Origin: Gemmatimonadota bacterium
GTDB taxonomy: Bacteria > Gemmatimonadota > Gemmatimonadetes > Longimicrobiales > RSA9
DNA: 64,000 nt
Direction: 5' to 3'
Assembly: GCA_052389275.1 (NCBI GenBank)
Contig: JBQTID010000004.1
Coordinates: forward strand, 581 to 64,580
Numbering within the stretch: position 1 is the stretch's first letter; each line of letters opens with the position of its first letter. The notes under the pieces are model-generated. The model worked only from the letters and a program-made list of their open reading frames with translations. It searched no databases and was not told the origin of the DNA. The translations under genes were made by a program, and so were the position numbers. Below are positions 2,651 to 43,893 of this stretch, in pieces.

Positions 2651-4210
2651 ATGAAAAAGCCGATGAACAGAATATACGCCGCCGTCGTCCTGGGCGTTTT
2701 GACCCTGTCCGCGAGTTGTAAGGACTTCCTGGACGTCAATACCAATCCAAACGCACCTGAGATCGTTTCGCCGAATCTGTATCTCGCGCCTATGCTACAC
2801 TGGCTGGTGACGGGTCCCCAGTTCGATGGCCGCTTCATCGGACGCTATACGCAGCAATGGACTCTGCCGGGTGCGAGCCTGAGCACCTGGGACCGCATGG
2901 GCTATGACCCGTCGAGCGATAACGGTGGGCAGATGTGGCGCGATGTCTACTGGTCTTTTGGCCAGAACCTGGTCGACATGAACACCAGGGCCGAGGCCGA
3001 GCAGCGCTGGGACCTTCTCGGTGTTGGGGTGGTGCTCAAAGCATGGGGCTGGCAGGAGCTGACCGATGCTCATGGCGAGATCATCGTCAAGGAAGCCATT
3101 GACCAGTCGAAGTTCGCTTTCAACTACGATACGCAGGAGTATGCCTATCAGGAGGTCAAGCGCCTGCTGGATAGCGCAATCGTGCTGCTGAAGAGAACCG
3201 ATGGCGCTGTCGACCAGGCCTATCTCGCCAGGGGCGACAAGATCTACAACGGCGATCGCGCGAAGTGGCTGAAGCTGGCGTATGGAATGCTCGCCATTCA
3301 CCTGAATCACTACTCCAACAAGGCGGCCTTGTACAAGCCCACGGACGTGATCGCCGCAGTCGATCAGTCATTCTCGAGCAATGCTGACGATGCGCTGCTG
3401 GGGTATACCGCGATCGGCAACGACGACACCAACTTCTGGGGTCGCACCAGAGGCAATATCGCGAGCTACCGGCAAACCCGGTTCGTAGTCAACCTGATGA
3501 ACGGATCGCAGTTCGGCGGCGTGGTCGACCCACGGATGGCCCGAATGCTGTCGCCGTCACCTGACGGGCAATACCGTGGGCTGGATATAAACGTCGTCGG
3601 CTTCGGCGCGCTGACCGCGGCGCAACAGCCCAACAACTTCCATGGCTATTCTGGAACCGGCGGTGTGGCATCGCCTGGCCGTTATATTTTCGATGACAAA
3701 GCGAAGATTCCGCTGATTACCTATGCGCAGCTTCAGTTCGTGAAGGCGGAAGCCGCGTTGAGGATGGGAAATCAGGCGACAGCCGCGGCTGCATACCGGG
3801 CCGGAATCTCAGCTCACATCGATTTCGTGAACACCTACAGCAACACATTGGCCACGCCGATCACCGGAGCCGAGAAAGATGCGTTCCTGACGGCGATCGT
3901 TCCGGCTAGCTTGACGTTGTCGCACATCATGCCGCAGAAGTACATCGCGCAGTGGGGCTGGGGACACAACGAAGTGTGGCTGGACATGCGCCGCTATCAC
4001 TACACCGACATCGATCCGGTAAGTGGCACGCAGGTCTACCGGGGTTTTGCTCCCCCGACGACTTTCCATCCTGATAACGGCGGCAAGGTCGTACAGCGCA
4101 TCAGACCGAGATTCAATTCGGAGTATGTGTGGAACGTCCCGGCGCTGAGTGTTATCGGCGGACTGGCCCTGGATTACCACACGAAGCCTATGTGGATCAC
4201 TGAACCGTAA
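2651..4210 (+). CDS. SusD/RagB-family nutrient-binding outer-membrane lipoprotein
   Basis: 519 aa. Lipoprotein signal MKKPMNRIYAAVVLGVLTLSASC followed by KDFLDVNTNPNAP, typical of SusD-like N-termini. Directly downstream of the SusC-like gene. Confidence 0.85.
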   Translation: MKKPMNRIYAAVVLGVLTLSASCKDFLDVNTNPNAPEIVSPNLYLAPMLHWLVTGPQFDGRFIGRYTQQWTLPGASLSTWDRMGYDPSSDNGGQMWRDVYWSFGQNLVDMNTRAEAEQRWDLLGVGVVLKAWGWQELTDAHGEIIVKEAIDQSKFAFNYDTQEYAYQEVKRLLDSAIVLLKRTDGAVDQAYLARGDKIYNGDRAKWLKLAYGMLAIHLNHYSNKAALYKPTDVIAAVDQSFSSNADDALLGYTAIGNDDTNFWGRTRGNIASYRQTRFVVNLMNGSQFGGVVDPRMARMLSPSPDGQYRGLDINVVGFGALTAAQQPNNFHGYSGTGGVASPGRYIFDDKAKIPLITYAQLQFVKAEAALRMGNQATAAAAYRAGISAHIDFVNTYSNTLATPITGAEKDAFLTAIVPASLTLSHIMPQKYIAQWGWGHNEVWLDMRRYHYTDIDPVSGTQVYRGFAPPTTFHPDNGGKVVQRIRPRFNSEYVWNVPALSVIGGLALDYHTKPMWITEP

Positions 4211-36872: not shown

Positions 36873-36899
36873 GAAGGAGTTTTCGCTACTCCCTTTTGT
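36873..36899 (+). terminator. weak candidate terminator hairpin
   Basis: GAAGGAGT-TTTCGCT-ACTCCCTT followed by TTG. The stem has a bulge and the T-run is short. Confidence 0.25.
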
Positions 36900-36952
36900 C
36901 CGTTCCTGCTATGTCCTGCCACCCAGCAACTACTGCATCGTTGCGTAGTCCA

Positions 36953-36978
36953 GCATCAATTTCACGCGGGGTACGCGG
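36953..36978. repeat. left arm of the inverted repeat bracketing the GxxExxY gene
   Basis: GCATCAATTTCACGCGGGGTACGCGG. The reverse complement of 37407-37431 is GCATCA-TTTCACGCGGGGTACGCGG: 19 nt perfect, 25/26 with one extra A. Confidence 0.9.
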
Positions 36979-36987
36979 AGGAGCGGA

Positions 36988-37428
36988 GTGCGCGGGGACA
37001 GCGTCGAACTCAACAAGATTACCGGCACAATCATAACTCTGGCGATCGACATTCATACGGCCATCGGACCTGGGCTGTTTGAGTCCGTTTATGAAGTGTT
37101 GCTGGAAGCTGAACTGAAGAAGTTGGGTTTCTTCGTAGAACGCCAGAAAGCCATGGGATTCGAGTTTCGCGGTTATCGGTTCGAAAACGCCTTCGTCCTC
37201 GATTTGTTGGTGAATAACAGCGTTATTGTTGAATTGAAATCCGTCGAACGTTTCGCGCCTGTATTCGAAAAACAACTGCAAACCTACCTTCGCCTGAGCA
37301 ACTGCCGGGTGGGTCTCCTGATCAATTTCAACGAATCATCTCTGAAGAATGGGATCCGGCGAGTGGTAAATCGTCTCGACGAAGCAACTCCGCGAACCCC
37401 GCTGCCCCGCGTACCCCGCGTGAAATGA
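36988..37428 (+). CDS. GxxExxY protein (PD-(D/E)XK nuclease-like family)
   Basis: 146 aa. GTG start preceded by AGGAG. ITGTIITLAIDIHTAIGPGLFESVYEVLLEAELKKLGF...VLDLLVNNSVIVELKSVE...QLQTYLRLSNCRVGLLINFN carries the GxxExxY signature (GLFESVY) and a D...ELK core. Visibly lower G+C than its neighbours. Confidence 0.8.
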   Translation: MRGDSVELNKITGTIITLAIDIHTAIGPGLFESVYEVLLEAELKKLGFFVERQKAMGFEFRGYRFENAFVLDLLVNNSVIVELKSVERFAPVFEKQLQTYLRLSNCRVGLLINFNESSLKNGIRRVVNRLDEATPRTPLPRVPRVK

Positions 37429-37431
37429 TGC
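37407..37431. repeat. right arm of the inverted repeat bracketing the GxxExxY gene
   Basis: CCGCGTACCCCGCGTGAAATGATGC. Includes the last codons and the stop codon of the gene. Confidence 0.9.
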
Positions 37432-37574
37432 GAGTCATCGCGATGCCGCGGCTGCCGTCCGCCCGGGCGATCCGGAGTCCTTCAGGTGAGGTTTGTTGAG
37501 CGAGGAATGCCTTGGCTTTGGCGTTCATGCCGGGCGTAGCAGCATAAGACATTCCGCGTTAGCTTCCCGCGCCT

Positions 37575-42395: not shown

Positions 42396-43893
42396 GCAAG
42401 AGCAGGCCGGCGAGTTTCCGTTCACGCGCGGCGTGTATCCGAGCATGTATAGCGGCCGCTTGTGGACGATGCGGCAGTATGCGGGGTTTGGCACCGCCGA
42501 GGAAACCAACCGGCGCTATCGCTATCTGCTGGATCACGGCCAGACGGGTCTGAGCGTTGCATTCGATCTGCCGACGCAAATGGGGCACGACTCGGACGCG
42601 GCCATGGCCGAGGGTGAGGTCGGGCGGGTTGGTGTTGCGATCAGCTCGATCGAAGACATGCGTGCGCTGTTCGATCAGATCCCGCTCGACAAAGTGTCGG
42701 TATCGATGACGATCAACTCGACGGCCGCGATATTACTTGCGCTGTATGTCGCGGTTGCGGACGAGAGAGGCATCAGCCGATCGCAGCTCGCCGGCACCGT
42801 TCAGAACGACATCCTGAAGGAATACATCGCGCGCGGCACCTACATCTATCCGGTCGAGTCGAGCCTCAGGCTGGTCACGGATCTGTTCGCGTTTACAGCG
42901 GCGCAGGTACCGAAATGGAATCCAATCTCGATCAGCGGTTATCATATTCGTGAAGCGGGCTCGACCGCCGCGCAGGAAATCGCATTCACCTTCGCCAACG
43001 GACTCGAATACGTTAGGCGCGCGCTGGCGCGCGGCATGCCGCTCGAGTCGTTAGGGCCACGGCTGTCGTTCTTATTCGCGGCGCACAGCAATATGTTCGA
43101 GGAAGTCGCGAAATTCCGTGCTGCCCGGCGCCTGTGGGCGAAGCTGGTGAGGGAACGGTTCAATGCGTCGGATGAGACGGCTCGCATGCGTTTTCACACG
43201 CAGACCGGCGGCGTGACGCTCACGGCGCAGCAGCCGCTCAACAACGTAGTCAGAGTCACGATCCAGGCCCTGGCGGCTACGCTGGGTGGTACCCAGTCGC
43301 TGCACACGAACGCGTACGACGAGGCGCTTGCGCTGCCGACCGAGCAGTCGGCGAAGCTCGCGCTGCGGACGCAACAGATCATCGCAAACGAATCCCGTAT
43401 CGCCGAAGCCGTTGATCCGCTGGGCGGCAGCTACTACGTGGAGGCGCTGACCGACGAGCTGGAAGCACGCGCACTGGAATACATTTGCGAGGTCGATGGT
43501 CTGGGCGGTGCGAGCAAGGCGGTGGAGTATTTCAAGAACGAGATACACAAGGCGTCCTACCAGCACCAGCTGGATGTGGAGGCGGGGAAGCGCATGATTG
43601 TCGGCGTGAACGTGTTTCGCGAGGACGAGACCGCTCTGCGCATCGAGCGGCCCGACTATTCAACGCTGGAAGCCGCGCAACGCGCCAGGCTGGCGGTGCT
43701 GCGCGAGCGCCGTGATGCTGGCGCAGTGGCGGCCGCGCTCGGGCGCGTGCGCGACAGCGCACGTGATGCCTCGACCAACCTGCTGCCGATTCTGATCGAC
43801 GCAGTGACGGCGTATGCTACGCTGGGCGAGATATCGGATGTGTTGCGACAGGAATGGGGCGTCTACCGCGGAGTAGCGGGGCAGCAAGGCTAA
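42388..43893 (+). CDS. methylmalonyl-CoA mutase-family large (substrate-binding) subunit, with no B12-binding domain
   Basis: ORF 42379..43893. [76 protein letters not shown]. It ends before where the B12-binding domain would start. Confidence 0.85.

Follow-up and report, generated by a model that had tools for sequence, protein, structure and literature searches.

Several families of bacterial elements resemble the locus described here. The ORF-bearing intervening sequences (IVS) of 23S rRNA, found in Leptospira and Coxiella, reside in helix 9, 25 or 45 of the 23S rRNA and carry a small ORF of about 0.4 kb, of the S23p/four-helix-bundle family, in the loop of a long stem made by terminal inverted repeats. 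In Coxiella, tandem heptamers lie in the 5' arm next to the Shine-Dalgarno (SD) and start sites, the stem is cleaved by RNase III, and the element, which is transcribed only as part of the host transcript, is regarded as a selfish insertion of unknown mobility (PMC4990558). In REPIN-RAYT systems, or REPtrons, an HUH/Y1 (IS200-like) transposase gene is associated with GTAG- or CGTC-tagged short palindromes (PMC3733652) that are also dispersed without the gene in hundreds of copies, and the RAYT gene itself is a single, syntenic gene under purifying selection (PMC5581495). Free-standing homing endonuclease genes are small nuclease genes of lower GC than their host that are inserted precisely in intergenic spacers of conserved operons and leave no target duplication. 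Finally, MITEs and terminal-inverted-repeat transposons possess inverted ends and give rise to internally deleted and ORF-less derivatives.

Here, we describe a 479-bp segment of a Gemmatimonadota genome in which a small nuclease gene occupies the loop of a predicted 41-bp hairpin built from short tandem repeats. The segment lies in the window, the 64-kb stretch of contig JBQTID010000004.1 that was analysed as a whole. A sequence-only reading had proposed that a low-GC GxxExxY gene is bracketed precisely by a 25/26-bp inverted repeat, and this observation is confirmed, with its sequences and coordinates correct. The 19-nt core of the repeat, TTTCACGCGGGGTACGCGG, occurs within the window only in the two arms, even when 3 mismatches are allowed; 0.02 occurrences are expected by chance, and 0 of 100 shuffles reached 2 matches. 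The repeat is longer than had been reported, however, with arms of 37 nt that are 89% complementary. Folding the sequence had been named in advance as a check, and in the minimum-energy fold of positions 36940-37445, 41 long-range pairs join the two arms, with a fold z-score of -4.9; the arms alone give a duplex of -77.6 kcal/mol. One detail of the earlier description requires correction: the left arm does not end before the ribosome-binding site, since AGGAG and the GTG start, as well as the stop codon, lie inside the helix. The features of the locus are collected in the following table.

Coordinates of the hairpin cassette and its parts within the 64-kb window
Feature	Position	Strand	Description
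Outer extension	36940-36950	+	Weak extension of the helix, pairing with 37434-37444; not conserved in relatives and probably not part of the element
Left (5') arm	36953-36997	+	GCATCAATTTCAC followed by tandem units of about 8 nt (GCGGGGTAC, GCGGAGGA, GCGGAGT, GCGCGGGG); matches the family consensus
Inverted repeat, left	36959-36995		37 nt
19-nt core, left	36960-36978	+
SD-like site	36979-36983	+	AGGAG, inside the left arm; 36980-36983 are paired in the predicted helix
GxxExxY/PDDEXK_3 nuclease ORF	36988-37428	+	146 aa, GTG start at 36988; motif G29-x-x-E32-x-x-Y35
GC trough	37000-37390		0.47-0.50, against 0.60-0.66 in the flanks; covers loop and ORF
Putative catalytic D72	37201-37203
Putative catalytic E82	37231-37233
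Putative catalytic K84	37237-37239
Right (3') arm	37388-37431	+	Tandem units CCGCGAACCCCGC / CCGCGTACCCCGC, then GTGAAATGATGC; contains the last codons (PRVPRVK) and the TGA stop
Inverted repeat, right	37390-37426		37 nt
19-nt core, right	37407-37425	-
Stop codon	37426-37428

The enclosed ORF is a member of the GxxExxY family, matching TIGR04256 at 126.6 bits (cut-off 35) and PF13366 (PDDEXK_3) at 124 bits (cut-off 22). The motif residues and D72, E82 and K84 fall in columns that are invariant (G29 nearly invariant) across 78 homologues. An AlphaFold model (pLDDT 90) shows the element order H-H-E-E-E-H-E, as expected for a restriction-endonuclease-like core, and its best PDB neighbours are Cas4, lambda exonuclease, RecB-type nucleases and Hjc, all of them weak and generic PD-(D/E)XK matches with a TM of about 0.5 or less; a sequence search of the PDB returned no hit. 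With E32, D72, E82 and K84 intact and a confident fold, the nuclease is probably active, although no experiment exists for this family. Residues 128-146, encoded by the right arm, form a tail predicted to be disordered (pLDDT 55-60), which is conserved as PRxPLPRVPRVK in relatives of about 70% identity. An exact lookup of the protein as read from its GTG codon (leading V instead of M) found nothing, whereas the same protein from the source MAG was recovered as P0001 in the search for relatives. No match to PADLOC or PHROGs profiles was found, and Rfam scans of the window region and of 10 related loci gave only spurious miRNA-like hits to hairpins. Literature searches on GxxExxY, PF13366 and TIGR04256 returned only incidental mentions, and surveys of REP sequences do not describe these repeats.

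The local GC profile had been proposed as a criterion that could overturn the reading, and it came out in its favor: the loop and ORF contain the lowest-GC 400-bp bins of the window, and a GC deficit is general for the family, being present in 95% of 79 loci with a mean of -0.08. The downstream gene is a carboxyltransferase (PF01039), consistent with pccB, but the upstream gene, labelled a beta-barrel gene in the sequence-only reading, has no Pfam or NCBIfam hit to back that label.

The bracket is not a local oddity. In 69 of 79 GxxExxY loci from many phyla, the gene is bracketed by an inverted repeat with a score of at least 33, against a shuffle maximum of about 20-33, and the consensus has the form TCAC-(GCRRAG-RC)x3 ... 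GTGA. The window arms, TTTCAC-GCGGGGTAC-GCGGAGGA-GCGGAGT..., conform to this class, defined in the present study, in which the inverted repeat tightly brackets the ORF and the arms comprise about 3 tandem 7-9-nt units capped by TCAC...GTGA. In a minority of loci (those we designate L044, L047, L060 and L219) the gene instead lies between separate repeats, as in REP systems. A metagenome scan with TTTCACGCGGNGTNNGCGG returned, among the rows listed, mostly single chance matches, and only a few paired-arm loci were informative.

Multiple lines of evidence indicate that the unit moves. Close relatives of the window copy lie in unrelated neighbourhoods, two of them in one MAG. In four unrelated genomic contexts (the window and three loci holding relatives, L081, L085 and L086), sequence similarity begins and ends at the outer ends of the inverted repeat, GCATC(A)TTTCAC...GTGAAATGATGC, stopping at GCATC / GATGC. 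Two copies that are 93% identical lie on different contigs of one MAG. A copy deleted internally within intact arms (locus L026) was found, as were short-loop hairpins next to genes, and ORF-less hairpins with the same arms are dispersed in genomes. In S. parapaucimobilis YK209 there are 27 arm sites, of which only 2 flank the gene, and only one gene was found; 125 sites of the GCGGAG type occur in 44 plasmid or chromid records, including Gemmatirosa. In S. parapaucimobilis, and in other Sphingomonadales and Gemmatirosa, the gene is flanked by inverted copies of a repeat that is also dispersed without it. For the window genome this point is left undecided, since only 64 kb was available and it holds no further hairpin copy; a candidate extra arm at 43868 has no inverted partner. 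Target-site duplications of 3 nt or more abut the repeats in 1 of 56 loci, equal to the permuted expectation. Vacant insertion sites, which had been named at the outset as a test of mobility, were sought for the window locus through orthologues of the upstream gene, but the closest orthologues are 62-66% identical and have different neighbours; no empty site or presence/absence polymorphism was obtained for any locus.

The cassette can also be stable. Conserved synteny across distant relatives had been set down beforehand as an outcome that would refute a mobile cassette, and this condition is fulfilled in another clade: in 24 of 24 Sphingomonadales genomes the cassette sits between fabD and fabG, where the ORF is under purifying selection with a median dN/dS of 0.14. 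The element can therefore be a long-term vertical resident and not only a recent insertion. In the alignment of these orthologous arms, 94% of cells are paired and 13 of 26 pairs have changed on both sides, a value reached in 0 of 500 shuffles, indicating compensatory evolution. The left arm abuts the fabD stop and the right arm ends about 20 nt before the fabG ATG, so that the cassette lies between co-oriented fab genes; from this layout we infer that it is co-transcribed, transcription itself not having been measured. Co-orientation with neighbouring genes across the loci, at about 70%, does not differ from what we would expect for adjacent bacterial genes in general, but no control was computed, the gene calls were crude, and this line was dropped.

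The analogy to 23S rRNA IVSs, raised in the sequence-only reading, was a good lead. Six of six four-helix-bundle genes examined outside rRNA, members of the family of the 23S-IVS ORF, carry the same kind of tandem-repeat hairpin bracket. Like an IVS, the window copy has terminal inverted repeats forming a predicted stem that encloses a small ORF, with short tandem repeats at the 5' side next to the SD and start, and in our comparison transcription only as part of the host transcript and the status of a selfish insertion of unknown mobility are also counted as common to both. Unlike an IVS, it lies in an intergenic spacer between protein-coding genes, with no clusters of 23S rRNA motifs in any of the 80 loci, its ORF is a PD-(D/E)XK nuclease rather than a four-helix bundle, and its arm units are 8 nt with a TCAC cap; excision by RNase III was not assayed. 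The comparison with REPIN-RAYT systems rests on a gene that was single-copy where it could be counted (one found in strain YK209, but two copies in one MAG) and flanked by inverted copies of a repeat, on dispersal of that repeat as ORF-less hairpins in lineage-specific variants, and on vertical, syntenic inheritance under purifying selection in Sphingomonadales. The enzyme, however, has a predicted PD-(D/E)XK fold rather than HUH/Y1, the repeats are arrays of tandem 8-nt units with a TCAC cap rather than tagged palindromes, the gene mostly lies in the loop of one long hairpin, and the copy numbers seen are tens of sites. The parallel with homing endonuclease genes, a small nuclease gene of lower GC than its host inserted precisely in an intergenic spacer without target duplication, is limited by the absence of an intron or intein, by the lack of any demonstrated cleavage of an empty allele, and by the long inverted tandem repeats, which are not a feature of those genes.

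These results partly support the interpretation originally offered, that of a mobile or recombination-delivered cassette: the locus is a discrete, repeat-bounded single-gene unit, but it is neither a classical terminal-inverted-repeat transposon nor an integron-type cassette. With moderate confidence, we regard the segment as one complete copy of a widespread hairpin cassette, IVS-like and REPtron-like, in which a GxxExxY nuclease gene of about 120-145 aa sits in the loop of a long stem whose arms are each about three tandem 8-nt units capped by TCAC...GTGA; the window copy is a solitary, intact and probably functional member. What the analysis demonstrates is the family-wide bracket across phyla, the boundaries at the outer arm ends, the occurrence in unrelated contexts and as paralogues within one genome, the deleted and ORF-less derivatives, and the very long vertical inheritance inside a core operon with compensatory change of the arms. 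The mechanism, in contrast, is our inference and has two levels. First, the arms must pair in single-stranded nucleic acid, most plausibly in the transcript, where the helix would loop the ORF out of the host mRNA, hide its SD and start codon, and present an RNase III-sized duplex, as has been demonstrated for ORF-bearing 23S rRNA IVSs; this would make an insertion between co-transcribed genes tolerable. Second, at the DNA level, the module and its ORF-less derivatives would have been spread by a mechanism that leaves no target duplication, with the encoded nuclease, acting on the repeat hairpins, as the likely agent, analogous to a RAYT with its REP/REPIN sequences. Several observations weigh against this view. 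There is no excess of G-U over A-C mismatches between the arms (68 against 67), and sense and antisense duplexes are equally stable (p = 0.86), so that nothing points specifically to the sense RNA, and the comparisons made here do not separate an action of the arms in RNA from one in DNA. The TCAC / GC..AG skeleton is conserved across phyla, which a pure stem does not require and which hints at a sequence-specific protein reader. Three of six ORF-less copies examined lie between divergent genes, where an RNA role is less obvious. Finally, the four-helix-bundle cassettes have the same architecture without a nuclease, so the nuclease cannot be the universal mobility factor.

Of the alternatives, a DNA-only, REPtron-like system survives best, although we consider it unlikely. 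In this view, the arms are hairpin or duplex DNA sites recognised and cleaved by the encoded nuclease, which copies ORF-less hairpins around the genome; the arms co-vary because both are read by the same protein, and the RNA stem is incidental. Dispersed ORF-less hairpins whose arm variant matches the arms of the resident gene, the single syntenic gene under purifying selection, the conserved skeleton, the absence of G-U / A-C asymmetry, the DNA-nuclease-like fold, and the ORF-less copies in divergent intergenic regions are all in its favor. Against it, four-helix-bundle genes, which are not nucleases, carry the same bracket, loops of 380 nt or more fold back readily in RNA but poorly in DNA, the SD and start codon are built into the arm, the only experimental precedent for this architecture is RNA processing (PMC4990558), and the enzyme is not an HUH/Y1 transposase and has no known activity.

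Somewhat less likely still is an RNA-only device, in which the stem exists solely to process, stabilise or translationally gate the mRNA in the manner of an IVS, the cassette is an ordinary and mostly vertically inherited gene, and the ORF-less hairpins are decayed cassettes or unrelated REP-like terminators. The long residence in the fab operon with compensatory arm changes, the sequestered SD and start, the IVS precedent, and the deleted copy, which shows that decay does occur, agree with this reading. However, about 25 ORF-less arm sites of one species-specific variant in a single strain are hard to derive from decay of a single gene, and the unrelated contexts, the paralogues within one genome, the family-wide GC deficit and the lack of a G-U tolerance signal also argue against it.

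A classical terminal-inverted-repeat transposon or MITE mobilised in trans by a DDE-type transposase is very unlikely despite the inverted ends and short ORF-less derivatives, given target-site duplications at no more than the permuted expectation, no transposase in or near the unit (its only ORF is the GxxExxY gene), arms that are tandem-repeat arrays of 26-45 bp unlike known IS ends, and order-level vertical persistence. An integron-type or other site-specific-recombination cassette, suggested by a single promoter-less ORF with a flanking imperfect repeat, is equally unlikely, because the repeat lies on both sides rather than as one 3' attC, the copy is solitary between a hypothetical gene and pccB rather than arrayed, and no integrase-like gene was seen among neighbours of the relatives where gene calls or annotation were available. 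A chance repeat, or a by-product of coding constraint on the conserved tail (PRVPRVK or SASPRLRVN), is refuted by the shuffles, by the many family members that stop before the arm yet keep it, by the predicted disorder of the tail, and by arms that occur without any ORF.

A broader possibility, which we put forward only tentatively, is that GxxExxY nucleases would be the dedicated enzymes of a second, RAYT-independent class of bacterial hairpin repeats, REPIN-like but with periodic arms. The ORF-bearing IVSs of 23S rRNA would then be merely the rRNA-resident subset of one broad class of looped-out cassettes, in which tandem-repeat stems let small selfish genes, GxxExxY nucleases and four-helix-bundle proteins, live inside essential transcripts for hundreds of millions of years.

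GxxExxY (PF13366) and four-helix-bundle (TIGR02436) proteins are small uncharacterised bacterial families, and at least about 8,000 relatives of GxxExxY were found in our search. On a practical level, annotators translate the arms into spurious tails and N-terminal extensions (SASPRLRVNQ, RRDAE...), and some pipelines misname these genes. If both families are cargo of one hairpin architecture, this gives them a concrete and testable biology, the binding or cleavage of their own periodic stems, and offers an origin for the 30-year-old puzzle of ORF-bearing 23S rRNA intervening sequences. It also adds a second example, besides REPIN-RAYT, of a repeat-plus-enzyme system that persists vertically, here wedged inside the fatty-acid synthesis operon of a whole bacterial order.

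The inverted repeat that a sequence-only reading had placed around a single low-GC GxxExxY gene is real, and both of its arm sequences are present where they had been reported. The 19-nt core TTTCACGCGGGGTACGCGG occurs only twice in the window, once on each strand, even with three mismatches allowed (chance expectation, 0.02). The repeat is, however, longer than had been reported, extending over 37 nt at 89% complementarity, and RNA folding of the region yields a minimum-energy structure whose closing helix has 41 pairs (z = -4.9), the two arms alone forming a duplex of -77.6 kcal/mol. One correction is required: the left arm had been thought to end just before the ribosome-binding site, but the AGGAG site, the GTG start, and the stop codon are all inside this predicted helix. 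The enclosed ORF (146 aa) is a clear member of TIGR04256 / PF13366, and an identical protein in the public collection (P0001) is named as coming from a Gemmatimonadota MAG. Computation of local GC content had been proposed as a test of the insertion, and GC drops to 0.47-0.50 against 0.60-0.66 in the flanks, these being the lowest-GC 400-bp bins of the window. The downstream gene is a carboxyltransferase (pccB-like), whereas the upstream gene has no family match, so that its earlier label of beta-barrel gene was not confirmed. A weak terminator-like hairpin (GGAGTTTTCGCTACTCC followed by CTTTTGTCC) lies between the stop of the upstream gene and the left arm, but is within chance expectation for the scan. 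The coordinates of these features, and of those at other loci, are collected in the table.

Coordinates of the cassette in the window and of related features at other loci
Locus	Feature	Coordinates	Strand
Window	19-nt core, left copy	36960-36978	+
Window	19-nt core, right copy	37407-37425	-
Window	37-nt inverted repeat	36959-36995 with 37390-37426	
Window	Region folded as RNA	36940-37445	
Window	Predicted closing helix	36953-36997 with 37388-37431	
Window	AGGAG site	36979-36983	
Window	GTG start	36988	
Window	GxxExxY ORF	36988-37428	
Window	Weak terminator-like hairpin	36876-36901	
L211 (Sphingomonadales)	Cassette between fabD and fabG	2461-2926	
L036 (Sphingomonadales)	Cassette between fabD and fabG	2974-3444	
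L220 (Nostoc sp. TCL26-01 plasmid)	Four-helix-bundle gene with hairpin arms	404-982	
L101	Arms around an ORF-less loop	1668-1940	
L124	Arms around an ORF-less loop	1167-1395	
L129	Arms around an ORF-less loop	1129-1458	
L216 (S. parapaucimobilis)	Composite hairpin	560-815	
L218 (S. parapaucimobilis)	Composite hairpin	565-770	
L226 (S. parapaucimobilis)	Composite hairpin	495-735	
L062 (Chitinophagales)	Tandem copies of the left arm, upstream of the gene	956-1142	
L062 (Chitinophagales)	Copies of the right arm, downstream of the gene	1623-1820	
L219 (Gemmatirosa kalamazoonensis plasmid 1)	GxxExxY gene next to hairpin repeats	1380-1980	

Alignment of homologues revealed that the C-terminal tail encoded by the right arm (PRxPLPRVPRVK) is conserved in relatives of about 70% identity, while more distant relatives end in SASPRLRVNQ, and some miscalled N-terminal extensions read like reverse-complement translations of such tails. 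Many JGI records (protein hits P0006, P0015, P0016, and others) name these GxxExxY proteins 'iron complex transport system substrate-binding protein', which looks like a propagated misannotation. Whether other GxxExxY genes carry similar flanks had been posed at the outset as a test of the cassette, and we fetched 80 genomic loci from many phyla, with GxxExxY genes 44-58% identical to the window protein, and aligned the 200 nt upstream of the domain with the reverse complement of the 200 nt downstream. Of 79 usable loci, including the window, 69 have an inverted repeat scoring 33-112, against shuffle maxima of about 20-33. The arms share one architecture, a TCAC (or TCGC / TCTC) cap followed by about three tandem 8-nt units, TCAC-(GCRRAG-RC)x3, with variants that are specific to lineages (GCGGAG, GCAAAG, GCAGAG, GCGAAG, GCAACG, and ACAGAG), and the version in the window, TTTCAC-GCGGGGTAC-GCGGAGGA-GCGGAGT, fits this pattern. 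The bracket is tight: the left arm typically ends 10-40 nt before residue 10 of the domain, the right arm starts 3-30 nt after its end, and the loop is usually 370-450 nt. When the ORF runs on, the right arm is translated into the tail, which is disordered in the AlphaFold model (pLDDT 90). Low GC relative to the flanks also holds across the family (95% of loci, mean -0.08).

Several lines of evidence indicate that the unit is a discrete, mobile-like module. Three close relatives of the window copy lie in unrelated neighborhoods, two of them (L085 and L086) in one MAG, and in a four-way alignment similarity begins at GCATC(A)TTTCAC and ends at GTGAAATGATGC, that is, at the outer repeat ends. 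The two same-genome copies are 93% identical over 534 bp and also share about 57 nt upstream of the inverted repeat (GTATTGCTCACCGGATTC...), which the window and the third relative, L081, do not clearly share, and which may be a lineage-specific extension of the unit or a promoter. Another GxxExxY locus, L026, carries, 800 bp from its intact cassette, a second pair of identical arms around an internally deleted GxxExxY remnant, and several loci have short-loop hairpins with the same arms beside the gene. Empty sites had been suggested as a further test, but no empty site or insertion polymorphism was found, and the 64 kb of this genome that was examined holds no second copy. No target-site duplication abuts the repeats (1 of 56 loci, equal to the permuted expectation). 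At three loci (L101, L124, and L129), arms like those in the window (TTTCACGCGGAGTTCGCGGAG...) enclose a 200-300-nt loop with no ORF, and this loop carries a conserved inner hairpin module (GACCCCAAA..TTTGGGGTC, then GGCATTCAGCCG) that may be a different, non-coding cargo. The Chitinophagales locus L062 has four tandem copies of the left arm at a 42-nt period and six copies of the right arm at a 35-nt period, and the arms can therefore be amplified as arrays.

Arms are also dispersed without the gene. Searches of plasmid and chromid records with bare arm sequences found the GCGGAG-type arm at 125 sites in 44 records, mostly Sphingomonadales, and at 13 + 8 sites in the two Gemmatirosa (Gemmatimonadota) megaplasmids, while the GCGAAG-type arm was found at 27 sites in seven replicons of Sphingomonas parapaucimobilis YK209, only two of which flank its one detectable GxxExxY gene; these counts come from BLAST of short, repetitive queries. 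The six ORF-less copies that we fetched are intergenic long hairpins, and several are composite. Such composites recur at several intergenic sites of one S. parapaucimobilis strain, with outer arms of the GCGAAG type enclosing inner arms of the GCGGAG type (up to 5 units), and the composite may itself be the repeated unit. In Gemmatirosa kalamazoonensis plasmid 1 (L219), a GxxExxY gene with an apparent frameshift lies next to hairpin repeats with 9-nt units; a complete hairpin (GAACCGCAGAGGACGCAGAGG...) follows the gene, and a matching right-arm fragment (TCCTCTGCGGTTC) lies at the upstream edge of the stretch read. This looks like a gene between hairpins rather than a gene in the loop.

Conserved synteny had been named beforehand as an observation that would count against a mobile or recombination-delivered cassette, and it was encountered in the Sphingomonadales. 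The S. parapaucimobilis gene lies between fabD and fabG, and re-examination of the loci revealed the same arrangement in 21 Sphingomonadales genomes, with FabD identity of 65-98%. Three further Sphingomonas genomes have it too, so that it holds in 24 of 24 genomes examined, the cassette sitting within the fatty-acid synthesis gene cluster. The interpretation of the unit as a mobile or recombination-delivered cassette is supported only in part. In the window the cassette sits directly upstream of the acyl-CoA carboxylase genes (pccB, biotin carboxylase), a shared link to fatty-acid synthesis that is unexplained and may be coincidence. In the fabD-fabG loci, the left arm starts 0-15 nt after the fabD stop and the right arm ends about 20 nt before the fabG ATG, leaving only the SD of fabG in between. 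Among these orthologues the ORF has a median dN/dS of 0.14. The arms differ between species, but the left and right arms change together: on a 26-pair helix, 94% of cells are paired and 13 pairs show changes on both sides, values that none of 500 shuffles reached, whereas shifted registers give 27-61% pairing. Complementarity, or identity of the two arms, is therefore actively maintained at an orthologous site.

We looked for a signature specific to RNA and found none. Mismatches between arms are G-U-compatible on the sense strand 68 times and on the antisense strand 67 times, and sense and antisense duplex energies do not differ (p = 0.86), results that do not exclude an RNA stem but give no support for one over a DNA-level constraint. 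In favor of an RNA role, the cassette in the fab operon lies between co-oriented fab genes with too little room between the arm and the start codon for a promoter of its own, from which we infer co-transcription, although transcription was not measured. Additionally, the SD and start codon are part of the arm, loops of about 400 nt close readily in RNA, and the only experimentally studied elements with this layout are 23S rRNA intervening sequences (IVSs); in Coxiella, the stem of inverted repeats is cut by RNase III, the loop holds an S23p ORF, and three tandem heptamers follow the SD (PMC4990558). In favor of a DNA role, dispersal of ORF-less copies requires some DNA-level mechanism, the cap and the GC..AG skeleton are conserved across phyla, arm variants in a genome match those of the resident gene, and three of six ORF-less copies lie between divergent genes. 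Furthermore, the nearest structural neighbors of the protein are DNA nucleases (Cas4, lambda exonuclease, RecB-type, and Hjc), though all matches are weak.

A link to the IVS ORF family emerged by chance from one metagenome locus (L180), in which AT-rich periodic arms (AAAAGT units) surround a frameshifted four-helix-bundle gene; our stitched reconstruction of this ORF scores 87.6 bits against TIGR02436. We then examined five annotated four-helix-bundle genes from plasmids of Nostoc (two), Treponema, Chlorohelix, and Bernardetia. In this small sample (n = 6 with L180), all five are bracketed by inverted repeats made of tandem 6-8-nt units such as AAAAGT, GAAAGNG, GATTAGT, and CAATTCG, with scores of 35-67 against shuffle maxima of 23-29. 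One of these genes, with (AAAAGT)n hairpin arms, lies between cas2 and cas1 on a plasmid of Nostoc sp. TCL26-01 (L220), on the opposite strand to both, and others lie between a helicase-related gene and an N-6 DNA methylase gene (L222) and just upstream of recF (L223). The tandem-repeat hairpin bracket is therefore shared by two unrelated small-protein families, one of which is the ORF family of the classical IVSs.

As far as we could tell, the systematic bracket around GxxExxY genes, its fixation between fabD and fabG in Sphingomonadales, and its sharing with four-helix-bundle genes have not been described, although curators' database notes or papers in subscription journals may mention it. 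In the literature that was searched, GxxExxY, PF13366, and TIGR04256 receive only incidental mentions, and Rfam has no matching family. Surveys of REP families describe GTAG- and CGTC-tagged palindromes, not these repeats, and note that the CGTC repeats lack a dedicated enzyme. We regard the element as IVS-like and REPtron-like, a variation on these systems rather than something categorically new.

We conclude that the segment is one intact copy of a widespread hairpin cassette. The analysis itself demonstrates the family-wide bracket, the discrete and mobile-like behavior of the unit, its long vertical residence in Sphingomonadales, and the bracket shared with four-helix-bundle genes, whereas every step of the mechanism is inference. 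A model combining RNA and DNA levels is, in our estimate, about as likely as not; a reading in which the arms act only in DNA is unlikely, and one in which they act only in RNA is slightly more so. A classical transposon, an integron cassette, and chance are, even taken together, very unlikely. In the combined model, the arms pair in single-stranded nucleic acid, most plausibly the transcript, which would loop the ORF out of the host mRNA, gate its translation, and provide an RNase III-sized duplex, making the insertion tolerable. At the DNA level, in this view, the module and its ORF-less derivatives were spread by a mechanism that leaves no target duplication, with the nuclease as the likely agent, as RAYTs are for REPINs.
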